NCBI GenBank assembly: GCA_043826455.1
Contig: JBDRQD010000006.1
Span: 29,049-93,048 of the forward strand
Source: Candidatus Bathyarchaeota archaeon
Lineage (GTDB): Archaea; Thermoproteota; Bathyarchaeia; TCS64
Length of the DNA stretch: 64,000 nt
Direction of reading: 5' to 3'
Shown here: piece after piece, positions 30,001 through 33,000 of the stretch
Layout of the letters: each line of letters starts with the position of its first letter
How positions within the stretch are numbered: position 1 is the stretch's first letter
Program-made: the position numbers

Positions 30001-33000
30001 CCCTGGCCTCCTCGCTGAACTTGGGTGGCCCCACCGTCTCTAGGTTCCTGAACAGGACCTCGCTCAGCTTCTTGTTGCTGAGCCCCGTCCTGGTGCGGGC
30101 TATGATGCGCTTCGTGACCCTGGTGCCAGTTATCTGGGCCACCCCCTTGGCCGTGTTGTCCAGCACCCGCTCTATCTGCTCCTGCATCTCTAGGAGCGGG
30201 GCCCTGTGGGCGTACTGGATCTGGCTTATCCTAGGGGGCAGGTTGTCCGAGGTGGCCTGGCCCCCTACCATTATGTACTCGTTGAGGGTCCAGTAGGCCG
30301 TGTAGGGGAGCATGGCGTCCTCCACGTACTTCGTGGCAGTGTACATTAGGCACACGGCGTCCAGGGACGCCGGTATCCTGCCCCCCGCGTGGCCCAGTAT
30401 CCTGAAGGGCACGTTCTTGGGCCTGAACCAGTTCTCGGGGTTCACCGTCTCGAAGGTGTACAGGGTGTTCCAGTAGCTGGCCGCGTTGATCTCGTACCTC
30501 ACCGTGTTGTAGCCGGCGGGGTGGTACGGGATGCTTGCGTCGAAGTCGTCGAAGTAGCCCTTGGCGGCGTGCACCGGCTTGGAGCCGCACACCTTCTCCG
30601 CGGGCTCCCCGAGGAACTTGAGGGTGCCCTTCAGCCCGTGCTTCTCCATGGTGTGCTTGGCCGCCAGGAACCCGAAGAGGGCGCCTGTTCCGAGCCCCGA
30701 GTGGGGGTCCGTGTGGCCAGCCGCGTAGGGGTGCAGGTTCTCGTCCCGGGGCTTCCGGTAGGGGACCGGCGCCTGGCTGCAGTCGGGTACCGCATCGTAC
30801 TCGGCGAAGCCGCCTACGACGGGCTTGCCCTTGCCCCAGACGGCGCAGAAGGCCGTGGGCATCTCGCCGCTGCCCTCCTCCACCTTCCAGCCGTCGTCCC
30901 GGAGGAGCTTCACGTAGGCCGCCGCCGACCTGTACTCCCTGAAGGCTGGCTCGGCTAGGCGCCAGATCTCCATGTGGAAGTCTGAGAGCCGCTTCCTGTT
31001 CTCGTCAACGTAGTCCAGGGCGGTCTTCTTCTCCTTCTGAATCTTACTCAAAACACCACCAAGACTACGTTGGGCGCCAGTATATAGAACATTTACCTGG
31101 CGAGAAGGAAAAATGGTACCATTAATCTTCGGAAATATTTAGGTCAAGAATAATGGTACCATTTCTAGGTGGGGACGAGCACCACGATGAAGCGGGCGGA
31201 TCAAAATGGTACCATTTTCCCTAACGCGGGATGCCACCATGAAGCGGGTAAACAAATGGTACCATTATTCCAGAGATTATTGGCATCTTGAAACCAGTTC
31301 AAGGTATGGTACCATTAAATTTCCCTTGATAAACCAAGGTCTTTGCCCCGAAAACTTATCTTGTGAACAGTCAACTTGTAGACAGTCAAGGTGAATGAGT
31401 TGGTTACAGTTACCTTCGTAAAGATAGGTTACATAGGCACGACGACCCTCGTCGACGCCCTCCTGGACGAGAGGTCCGCCCGGGCGGACATCAAGATACG
31501 GATAATATCCAGCGGCGTCAACATGGACGAGGCCGAGGGTGAGGCCGTGGCCAAGATCGCTGCAGGCGTCCCGAGCGACCTGTACGTGGCCATATCCCCC
31601 AACGTGGGGCTGCCGGGCCCCGCGAAGGTCAGGGAGGTCCTGAAGAAGACGGGCAAGCCCATCATAGTGATAGGGGACGAGCCCAGCAGGAAGGCCGTGA
31701 AGAGCTTCCCCGAGGAGGGCATAGGCTACATAGTCATCTACGGTGACCCCATGATCAGCGCCAAGGCGCCGTTCCTGGACCCCGTGGAGATGGCCCTCTT
31801 CAACGCCGACGTCATACGGGTGCTGGCCGTGACGGGGGCCTTCAGGCTGGTCCACACGGCCATCGACAAGGTGATAGACGAGCTGAAGGAGGGCAAGAAG
31901 CCCGTGCTCCCCGAGCTGATCATCAACAAGACGGCCGCTCTAGCGGCCAGCGATATCCAGAACCCCTACGCCTACGCCAAGGCCATGGCCGCCTACGAGG
32001 CGTCCAAGGAGGTGGCCAGCCTCAGCACCGAGGCGGTCTTCAAGATCGAGGACAGGAACGAGGCATTGCCGGTGCTGGCCGCGGCCCACGAACTCATGAG
32101 GATGGCGGCCAAGCTGGCTGACGAGGCGCGGGAGATCGAGAAGGGCAACGACACGGCTGTGAGGCTAGCCCACTATAAGAAGGGGGACCTCAGGCGCCGG
32201 GTGAAGCTCTTCGACGAGCCCGAGAAGTAGGCTACCTGTGCCTACTTCTCCCTCGCCTAACCTTTACGGCTGCCCCGGTCCTGAAGCTGAGCATCTCCTT
32301 TTTTATCAGCAGGGCCTTACCCACGGCAATCACTTCTTTCTGCGAGTCCAGGACCACCACCTCGTCCCCCGGCCTTATGGCGTCGCCAGCGTCCACCACG
32401 TGCTTGGCGAACACGTTCCTCCCCTCCTCCACGGCCTCCACCACGTCGTCTAGGATGGTCACGGCGTAGCCGAAGCCCTCCATCGCCTCAGCTAACCTCC
32501 TGGCCCCCGCGATGGTCAGGGTGAACAAGGCGTCGTTAGGCCTGTAGTTGGCCACCAGCACGCCCCCCGCCTCCAAGTGCCTTGGTTTGCCCGTGTTCTT
32601 GGAGTACTCGATGACCGTGTCCTCCGGGAAAAGGGCTTCTCCTGCCCCGCGGCCGAACTGGAAGTCAGCCACAGCCCTAAGCCTCTCCACGTCCTCTTTC
32701 ATCAGCCTCAACCATGTCGCTGAGGATTTATAAGCCCAGCCATAAAGTCTCTATGAGGTTCATACATGCGCTGCGAAGTATGTGGACGCGAGATATTCGG
32801 GCAAGTCTACTACAGGGTCATAGAGGGAGGTAAGATGACGGTCTGCTCCGGGTGCGCCCAGTTCGGCGCACGGGACTGGGACCCCAAGGAGAAGACGGCT
32901 CAGCAGTCTCGTAGGGGCCCCTCCAGGTCGGCGGCGCCCCCGCGCCCCAGGAGCGACATAGAGGTGGCGGAGACCTTCGAGCTGGTGGAGAACTATGGGG

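Follow-up and report, generated by a model that had tools for sequence, protein, structure and literature searches.

How does an archaeon that encodes F420-dependent enzymes obtain F420 when the genes that build the cofactor are missing from its genome? The question is raised by an mtd gene from a sediment archaeon of the Bathyarchaeia, a class that is among the most abundant sediment archaea and is hard to grow. F420 is usually treated as made by its own users. According to a 2021 review, Bathyarchaeota are predicted to produce F420, and that review mentions neither scavenging nor uptake nor salvage (PMC8498797). A literature search found no paper on F420 uptake, an F420 transporter, or F420 import, salvage or auxotrophy, and none that ties Bathyarchaeia to riboflavin auxotrophy. 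To our knowledge, no F420 or FO transporter has been characterized.

The neighborhood of mtd

The window analyzed here is a stretch of 64,000 nucleotides from a metagenome bin of 81 contigs that is 97.66% complete and 7.21% contaminated. Within it, mtd occupies positions 31391..32230 of the forward strand and is predicted to encode an F420-dependent methylene-tetrahydromethanopterin dehydrogenase of 279 aa. The first-pass annotation had placed an Mtd at 31400-32230, and the assignment stands for the ORF at 31391-32230: the protein matches the equivalog model NF002162 across residues 4-278 of 279 (322.9 bits, cut-off 297) and PF01993 with 328.5 bits, and it can be aligned end to end with Methanopyrus Mtd (1QV9/3IQE; phmmer E 2e-67, query residues 7-278 with chain residues 6-283). 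Judged by these matches, the ORF is an intact F420-type Mtd, which is predicted to transfer hydride between F420 and methylene-H4MPT. Mtd is carried by all 23 sampled genomes of the genus.

On the reverse strand lies fhs (27701..29377), encoding a formate-tetrahydrofolate ligase of 558 aa (NF010030, 774 bits, cut-off 652), with folD (26860..27699, reverse strand) directly downstream; the latter encodes a methylene-tetrahydrofolate dehydrogenase/cyclohydrolase of 279 aa (PF02882, 151.2 bits; PF00763, 118.9 bits). The fhs-folD pair is an F420-independent C1 branch beside the F420-type mtd. With this branch encoded in the window, C1 units could flow without F420. The same neighborhood of mtd and fhs-folD recurs in a relative with a single-contig genome, G158. 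Between fhs and mtd, an M20-like amidohydrolase of 537 aa (29438..31051, reverse strand) shows weak and partial matches only (TIGR01891, 89.3 bits, cut-off 153.75; PF01546, 20.4 bits).

Other F420-dependent enzymes and CofE

Of the further F420 users listed by the first-pass annotation, the following hold up and exceed their cut-offs: Mer, which belongs with Mtd to the tetrahydromethanopterin C1 branch (TIGR03555, 402 bits, cut-off 348.7), Fno (TIGR01915, 172 bits, cut-off 149.8), an FrhB-like protein (NF006807, 269.3 bits, cut-off 269) and three LLM oxidoreductases of TIGR03560, with two more below the cut-off. Ftr and Mch are also encoded. CofE, which had likewise been listed as retained, is found on contig C25; it scores 311.3 bits on TIGR01916 (cut-off 180.65) and 282.4 bits on NF009809 (cut-off 274) and can be aligned with 7ULD and 2PHN. 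By its model scores it is a true CofE (F420-0:L-glutamate ligase), not a folate-type enzyme. CofE was found in 23 of 23 sampled genus genomes, and its family (PF01996) in 31 of 32. A gene on contig C76 that had been called a CofE paralogue was rejected as an F420 gene: it reaches 45.3 bits on TIGR01916 (cut-off 180.65) and is located in a tetrahydromethanopterin-biosynthesis cluster, next to beta-RFAP synthase-family, DHPS-like (TIGR00284), CitG-like and DUF447 genes. Within the genus, Mtd, CofE and the candidate importer described below are under purifying selection, with median dN/dS values of 0.12, 0.17 and 0.19, respectively.

The enzymes might have changed their cofactor. The "F420" enzymes of genomes without CofD could now use FO, a flavin or a nicotinamide cofactor, and CofE could glutamylate a pterin or folate; in other organisms, CofE homologues act on folate (FolC2, model TIGR04132). 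Such a switch would fit the C76 gene in its methanopterin-synthesis cluster, the position of mtd beside fhs-folD both here and in G158, and some Mtd-bearing genomes that also lack CofE (G158, G121, G153, G164, G191, G196, G214 and G086). We consider it very unlikely, however, because Mtd, Mer, Fno and CofE all exceed curated equivalog cut-offs, on the folate-type TIGR04132 the C25 CofE reaches 68.7 bits against a cut-off of 350, and the Mtd and CofE sequences are full length and about half identical to solved F420 enzymes, as estimated by eye from printed alignments. We also know of no role for Fno and FrhB without a deazaflavin.

Absence of F420 synthesis genes from the genus

Searches of this genome returned no match to CofD at E<=10 and none to CofC; the best match to CofG scored 17.1 bits (cut-off 213) and the best to CofH 17.6 bits (cut-off 374). 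Each of these searches gave matches in the control genomes. The genus was sampled with 32 genomes including this one, eight of which reach 90% completeness or more with contamination of 5% or less. CofD, CofC and CofG were found in 0 of 32, and CofH exceeded its cut-off in 0 of 32 (best match, 31.8 bits). The absence of CofC, CofD and CofH from this genome, and of CofD from the genus, had been reported before and is upheld; CofG had not been searched separately, and the searches for CofC and CofH had covered one genome. Because all four families are missing from 32 of 32 genus genomes, both gaps are closed.

Genes could seem to be missing from an 81-contig metagenome bin with 7.21% contamination because the bin is incomplete or contaminated, a concern that the first-pass annotation had itself raised. 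This explanation is scarcely credible and was rejected. Each of the four families is found in 0 of 32 genus genomes, while almost every genome of the genus carries CofE, Mtd and the candidate importer; the control genomes matched; and Mtd without CofD is also seen in single-contig genomes elsewhere in the class (G158, G245 and G081). On the core reading, the organism depends on F420 although it lacks the synthesis genes, and would have to scavenge F420 or a precursor. The earlier reading of this genus as a scavenger is now better grounded in one part, the presence of F420 users without synthesis genes, but its scope, a loss in this genus, was wrong.

Erosion of F420 synthesis across the class

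Among 301 Bathyarchaeia genomes, CofH exceeds its cut-off in 19, CofD is present in 156, CofE in 284 and RibH in 14. In the family of this genus, CofH is found in 0 of 52 genomes and CofD in 5 of 52. CofD is also missing from 98 of the 173 Mtd-bearing Bathyarchaeia genomes, single-contig ones included. These counts reject a genus-specific loss: the erosion of F420 synthesis is class-wide and not particular to the genus. As CofH is missing from the whole family and from most of the class, it is not a "core" gene that the genus lost, and the ancestors of the genus most likely already lacked it. In the five CofD-bearing genomes of the family, CofC adjoins CofD in all five and CofH occurs in none, which makes them FO salvagers.

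The retention of CofE (284/301) is likewise not special to the genus, and because CofE is kept even where both CofD and the candidate importer are missing, it is no proof of salvage. RibH is missing from 287 of the 301 class genomes, from 52 of 52 family genomes and from this genome. By the known route, then, F420 cannot be built in the genus, in its family or in much of the Bathyarchaeia, for want of CofG/CofH, CofC and CofD; RibH is missing as well, yet purifying selection still maintains F420-dependent enzymes in these lineages.

A RibU-like candidate importer

The sole RibU-like gene of this genome, here termed P1, is located outside the window on the reverse strand of another contig (G000 C62:25293-25850) and encodes a protein of 185 aa that resembles an ECF-transporter S component. 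It scores 27.7 bits on PF12822, below the 30.7 cut-off (E 3.3e-6); the orthologue in G245 reaches 38.6 bits, and many P1 homologues carry PF12822. The AlphaFold model has a pLDDT of 94.9. Its best solved matches in Foldseek are RibU structures (5KBW_A, E 6e-6, TM 0.80/0.87; 3P5N_A, TM 0.77/0.84), and other S components give TM values of 0.5-0.67. As modelled, P1 has the S-component fold and is closest to RibU. Its ligand probably belongs to the class with a (deaza)flavin ring and a ribityl chain. Four invariant charged residues of P1 (R78, K88, D46 and E92) are missing from its paralogue P2; they are only suggestive of an anionic ligand. The genome has a single energizing module, on contig C73, in which a 581-aa fused EcfA-A' with two ABC_tran domains is followed by CbiQ/EcfT (110.4 bits); no S-component gene adjoins it.

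In this genome and in most of the family, P1 has an acyl-CoA ligase gene on one side and an M20 amidohydrolase gene on the other, the latter 49 bases downstream on the same strand in the family, and no F420 gene adjoins. The M20-like protein of the window gave no tblastn match near any RibU-like gene, so the window gene is distinct from the C62 M20 enzyme. Across the class, 50 regions around P1 were examined; 16 of them, from 16 of 45 genera and four families, have CofE, FrhB, Mtd, Mer or CofC/CofD at most 7 kb from P1, and the other 34 revealed no F420 gene nearby. P1 adjoins CofE in G102, G075 and G289, and the gene order in the single-contig G245 is CofE-Mtd / FrhB-P1. P2 is found beside CofD-CofC in G095 and G056.

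Distribution of P1 and P2

P1 is complementary to CofD and mirrors it across the class. With P1 and P2 separated as strong and weak matches by an E-value threshold against a profile of three P1 sequences, a split checked by a quick tree of 61 sequences only, and with the genome lists behind the cross-tabulations transcribed by hand, the 156 genomes with CofD comprise 10 with P1, 82 with P2 only and 64 with neither, and the 145 without CofD comprise 94, 15 and 36, respectively. None of the 19 genomes with CofH carries P1; two have P2 only and 17 have neither. Seen from the importer, 94 of 104 P1-bearing genomes lack CofD and none has CofH. P2 is predominant in genomes that have CofD but not CofH. 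Among Mtd-bearing genomes, P1 is present in 71 and absent from 27 of the 98 without CofD, and it is present in 6 of the 75 with CofD. Counted by genus, 34 have P1 only, 47 CofD only, 11 both and 18 neither (odds ratio 0.12); the genomes are related, so that association tests of this kind overstate the signal.

The main rival to an F420-related role is that P1 imports riboflavin in the ordinary way, as a RibU/FmnP, in a class without riboflavin synthesis, with F420 or FO entering elsewhere and the linkage to F420 genes incidental. RibU is the closest fold, the JGI label for P1 homologues is "riboflavin transporter FmnP", and the loss of RibH from most of the class and all of the family would call for such a protein. 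Flavodoxin and RibD_C genes occur near P1 in two genomes, and P2 adjoins RibH in G225. Because this genome has one RibU-like gene, no second, and no RibH, P1 may simply import riboflavin. A general riboflavin importer, however, would not be expected to show a distribution that is the mirror image of CofD, and the neighbors of P1 are CofE, Mtd, Mer and CofC/CofD rather than genes for riboflavin kinase or FAD synthetase. The RibU-like family does not track riboflavin genotype: 17 of the 19 genomes with CofH have no RibU-like gene, although RibH too is missing from most genomes with CofH, and of the 11 genomes of the FO-making family f9 two have RibH and only one has a RibU-like gene. With RibU-like genes entirely missing from 100 of the 301 genomes, many members of the class must take up riboflavin by another route. 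We consider it rather unlikely that P1 is only a riboflavin importer.

Alternatively, F420 or a related deazaflavin could be made by enzymes non-homologous to CofC, CofD, CofG and CofH, with no scavenging. Archaeal cofactor pathways often show non-orthologous replacement, the presence of CofE in 284 of 301 genomes would fit an intact pathway with unrecognized early steps, and 36 genomes without CofD carry neither P1 nor P2. Four enzymes, two radical-SAM steps among them, would nevertheless have had to be replaced at once, and relatives with CofC/CofD use the ordinary enzymes. A conserved CofE partner replacing CofD was also rejected: the neighbors of CofE in this genome (alanine racemase, a 162-aa membrane protein and a molybdopterin-domain protein) are shared, in any part, by 2 of 19 other genus loci, and no conserved unknown gene stands beside CofE in the genus. 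The replacement pattern that is seen is that of a transporter-type protein. Synthesis by unrelated enzymes is, in our judgment, improbable.

Discussion

Our best reading, held with about equal belief and doubt, is deazaflavin salvage, in which RibU-like P1 imports the cofactor and CofE rebuilds its glutamate tail; the presence and absence of genes, their linkage, the complementary distribution, the fold and the selection are observed, and the transport, the substrate and the tail remodeling are what we infer. A deazaflavin would be taken up from the environment, and P1 would import F420 or F420-0, powered by the fused EcfA-A'/EcfT on C73. CofE would then add or restore gamma-glutamates, by which the cofactor would be trapped in the cell and fitted to its enzymes. 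In relatives with CofC/CofD/CofE but without CofG/CofH, P2 would import FO. By pure conjecture, the M20 amidohydrolase downstream of P1 might trim foreign tails.

Like the ECF-RibU systems of S. aureus (3P5N) and T. maritima (5KBW), P1 appears to be a small membrane S component (TM 0.77-0.87, rmsd 2.2-2.7) whose gene stands apart from those of the shared EcfAA'T energizer. Unlike them, it is linked to CofE/FrhB/Mtd, is complementary to CofD and has subfamily-specific charged residues, and its identity to them is 18-21%. A parallel in logic is the F420-0 ABC importer proposed for Actinobacteria (NCBIfam TIGR03868 "F420-O_ABCperi" and its partners): CofE and F420 users are kept, earlier steps are missing and a dedicated importer, here a candidate, is present. 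That importer is a bacterial, binding-protein-dependent ABC system, whereas the candidate here is an archaeal ECF S component. The bacterial importer was rejected as the route, as TIGR03868 exceeds its cut-off in 0 of 13 genus genomes (best match 31.1 bits against 392.4).

Folate auxotrophs offer a second parallel. Folate imported by ECF-FolT or otherwise is gamma-glutamylated inside the cell, and folylpolyglutamate synthetase is kept after biosynthesis is lost; the tail-adding ligase is thus retained because the cofactor is imported preformed. In our case the cofactor is another one and the ligase comes from another family (CofE, not FolC), and for F420 we infer the scheme. The FO-salvage genotype (CofC/CofD/CofE without CofG/CofH) is that of 5 of 5 CofD-bearing genomes of sister genera and 139 of 156 in the class. 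This genus has gone one step further: CofC and CofD are also lost, so that FO alone would not yield F420.

We advance more tentatively the wider proposal that P1, as an ECF S component that arose from a riboflavin binder, is the first importer of F420, that a large part of the Bathyarchaeia are F420 auxotrophs living on deazaflavin, and on riboflavin, released by methanogens and other producers, with CofE re-tailoring the imported cofactor, and that P2 is the long-sought FO importer. If salvage is true, P1 and P2 could be tested directly as candidate transporters of F420 and FO, and supplements of F420, FO and riboflavin would be worth trying in cultivation. Reconstructions that score F420 biosynthesis as present from CofE alone would need correction. 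For its C1 metabolism, a globally abundant class of archaea would then rely on cofactors made by its neighbors, in a hidden cross-feeding with methanogens.

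F420-linked genes of the mtd locus and the source genome

The window spans C6:29049–93048 of the source genome. The ORF at window positions 31391–32230 (plus strand, 279 aa) scores 322.9 bits against NF002162 (cut-off 297) and 328.5 bits against Pfam MTD, and its alignment with the solved enzyme of Methanopyrus runs from end to end. By the curated equivalog model, it is the F420-dependent methylene-tetrahydromethanopterin dehydrogenase (Mtd), as the first-pass annotation had named it. Upstream, on the opposite strand, lie folD (26860–27699), fhs for formate-tetrahydrofolate ligase (27701–29377) and an uncharacterised, weakly M20-like amidohydrolase of 537 aa (29438–31051), which separates fhs/folD from mtd. 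The tetrahydrofolate C1 branch thus adjoins mtd (26860–32230), placing F420-type and nicotinamide-type C1 dehydrogenases side by side; a single-contig relative (G158) has the same arrangement. TGT_C2 and PUA domains occur together in a stand-alone protein of 159 aa at 32232–32711 (minus strand), and about 2.3 kb from it lies a 526-aa TgtA with a TGT domain and DUF5591 (35055–36635, plus strand). The pair resembles an archaeosine tRNA-guanine transglycosylase divided over two genes.

Of the other F420 users listed earlier for this genome, the searches recovered Mer at 402 bits (cut-off 348.7), Fno at 172 bits (cut-off 149.8), an FrhB-like protein at 269.3 bits (cut-off 269) and three TIGR03560 oxidoreductases over the cut-off, with two more under it. 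CofE reaches 311.3 bits with TIGR01916 (cut-off 180.65), and Ftr (C76:22380–22826) and Mch (C76:26244–27176) are also encoded. The second CofE that had been proposed (279 aa) is not counted as F420 machinery, given only 45.3 bits with TIGR01916 and its position in a tetrahydromethanopterin biosynthesis cluster on contig C76 (locus L025:4767–10825), where its neighbours are a beta-RFAP-synthase family member, a DHPS-like TIGR00284 protein, a CitG-like protein and DUF447. Its substrate may be the pterin cofactor, with the protein serving as a glutamyl or similar ligase.

Absence of F420 biosynthesis genes

The source genome (97.66% complete, 7.21% contaminated) gave zero matches to CofD and CofC at E ≤ 10, and its best matches to the FO synthase components CofG and CofH were generic radical-SAM proteins at ~17 bits; control genomes were matched in all of these searches. 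The reported lack of CofC, CofD and CofH is borne out by all 32 genomes of the genus, in which CofD, CofC, CofG and over-cut-off CofH are each found in 0/32, CofG and the genus-wide CofC and CofH searches being additions to the earlier work. PF01996 is present in 31/32. The retained genes are under purifying selection in the genus, with median pairwise dN/dS values, rough because dS is near saturation, of 0.17 for CofE (20 sequences), 0.12 for Mtd (7 sequences) and 0.19 for the RibU-like gene described below (18 sequences). It is less likely that the F420-type enzymes have switched to another cofactor, or that enzymes of an unknown kind replace CofC, CofD, CofG and CofH. Within the genus, CofE sequences form two groups, with ~72–84% and ~46–52% identity to that of the source genome (loci L018–L023 compared with L005–L017); judged by this grouping, divergence within the one named genus is deep.

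Erosion of the pathway across the class

Every class-wide search used one set of 301 Bathyarchaeia genomes, each at least 80% complete, including 52 of the family and 23 of the genus. CofD occurs in 156/301 genomes (family 5/52, genus 0/23), CofH over the cut-off in 19/301 (0/52, 0/23), CofE over the cut-off in 284/301 (44/52, 23/23) and Mtd in 173/301 (50/52, 23/23). A cross-tabulation from genome lists copied by hand out of the search tables gives 75 genomes with Mtd and CofD, 98 with Mtd only, 81 with CofD only and 47 with neither, and of the 173 genomes with Mtd, CofH is present in only 14. Mtd without CofD is also seen in three single-contig genomes (G158, G245 and G081); that the absences are bin artefacts is less likely. 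The view of this organism as a scavenger of F420 or a precursor is supported in substance, but its restriction to this genus is wrong, since the CofD and CofH counts show a class-wide pattern.

In the five CofD-bearing genomes of the family, CofC adjoins CofD and CofH is found in none. The CofC beside CofD looks damaged in sister genera, being in two pieces in G134 (L046, G134:C23) and carrying an in-frame TAG in G080 (L043, G080:C36), which suggests decay and may represent loss in progress. The class shows grades of F420-pathway erosion: a few full producers, many genomes that could at most complete F420 from FO taken in, many (this genus among them) with CofE alone, and a few without any F420-synthesis gene. 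Many Bathyarchaeia have 2 to 4 genes per genome over the CofE equivalog cut-off, including the CofD-less G100, G141, G204 and G245.

A RibU-like S component linked to F420 genes

In the CofD-less, single-contig genome G245, CofE-Mtd and FrhB face each other, and after FrhB comes a protein of the ECF-transporter S-component family (185 aa); in G264 a homologue follows FrhB beside CofE-Mtd. Both proteins match one single locus of the source genome, C62:25293–25850 (minus strand, 185 aa), here termed P1. A three-sequence profile finds RibU-like relatives in 201/301 genomes, which were divided at a best E-value of 1e-30: the 104 genomes with matches at or below it were assigned to P1, and the 97 with weaker matches to the paralogue, as P2 only. 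In a quick tree built from 42 P1 and 19 P2 sequences, P2 stands on one side of a branch (SH-aLRT 93), and P1 falls into two groups. R78, K88, D46 and E92 are invariant in P1 and different in P2; R127, N135 and N161 are common to both.

P1 is found in 94 of the 145 genomes without CofD (P2 only 15, neither 36), compared with 10 of the 156 with CofD (P2 only 82, neither 64); among the 19 with CofH, none has P1, two have P2 only and 17 have neither. The same holds for Mtd-bearing genomes, with P1 in 71/98 lacking CofD versus 6/75 with it. By genus (n = 110), 34 have P1 only, 47 CofD only, 11 both and 18 neither (odds ratio 0.12), although these association figures overstate independence because genera and genomes are related.

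In 50 P1 regions of ~14 kb from 45 genera, surveyed by tblastn, CofE, FrhB, Mtd, Mer or CofC/CofD lies near P1 in 16 (16 genera, 4 families); one further region has a weak LLM match only. The usual order in the family, kept in four genera (g1, g2, g5 and g7), is acyl-CoA ligase, P1, M20 amidohydrolase. The amidohydrolase (TIGR01891, 255 bits; contig C62 of the source genome, locus L090:8817–13096) lies 49 bases downstream of P1 in this family, on the same strand, with the ligase on the other side. Exceptions are G102, where P1 abuts CofE, and G143, with CofE-CofC-CofD-P1 (partial). Outside the family, genes found with P1 encode a small ArsR-type regulator (8 loci), a flavodoxin, a RibD_C protein or a RimK-type ligase. 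P2 adjoins CofD-CofC in G095 and G056, FrhB in G077 and G217, and lumazine synthase (RibH) in G225. In G103 (L139:3817–5847), the SRP54 gene beside the RibU-like gene has an intein-splicing domain.

Of the S components, RibU (for riboflavin) is by far the best match to the AlphaFold model of P1 from the source genome (pLDDT 94.9). A fused EcfA-A' and an EcfT, both on contig C73, form the only energizing module of the genome, and no S-component gene adjoins it.

Riboflavin import or deazaflavin salvage

RibH, the sole riboflavin gene searched, is present in only 14/301 Bathyarchaeia (family 0/52, genus 0/23; controls matched in 14/14 genomes), which points to class-wide riboflavin auxotrophy, a subject on which our literature search found no paper. 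The main alternative is accordingly that P1 is a plain riboflavin importer of a riboflavin auxotroph, and both the JGI label of its homologues and its status as the only RibU-like gene of the source genome fit this function. However, the RibU-like family follows the deazaflavin genotype rather than the riboflavin genotype: 100/301 genomes, nearly all RibH-less, are without any RibU-like gene, and family f9, with CofH in 10/11 genomes, has RibH in 2/11 and a RibU-like gene in 1/11. Family f9 may make FO from an early riboflavin intermediate and not complete riboflavin itself. Both views would hold if the importer were of broad specificity, carrying riboflavin as well as deazaflavins.

Deazaflavin salvage is the simplest account of the genotype. 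P2 would bring FO to genomes with CofC, CofD and CofE, P1 would bring a later form (F420-0 or F420-n) where CofC and CofD are lost, and CofE would then extend the tail of the imported cofactor, much as folate auxotrophs retain polyglutamate synthetase. By its name, the NCBIfam model TIGR03868 describes the binding protein of an F420-0 ABC transporter, so that an importer plus CofE is already a database prediction for bacteria; none of the 13 genomes of the genus searched for this family passes its cut-off (best match 31.1 bits, cut-off 392.4). In passages of a 2021 review of F420, Bathyarchaeota are predicted to produce the cofactor, and uptake is not discussed there (PMC8498797). Our literature searches found no paper on the uptake, import or salvage of F420, on a transporter for it or on F420 auxotrophs, and only general F420 papers for cofH or cofD with Bathyarchaeota. 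The most valuable outcome is the hypothesis of P1 and P2 as candidate transporters, together with class-wide (deaza)flavin auxotrophy, both of which can be tested at the bench.
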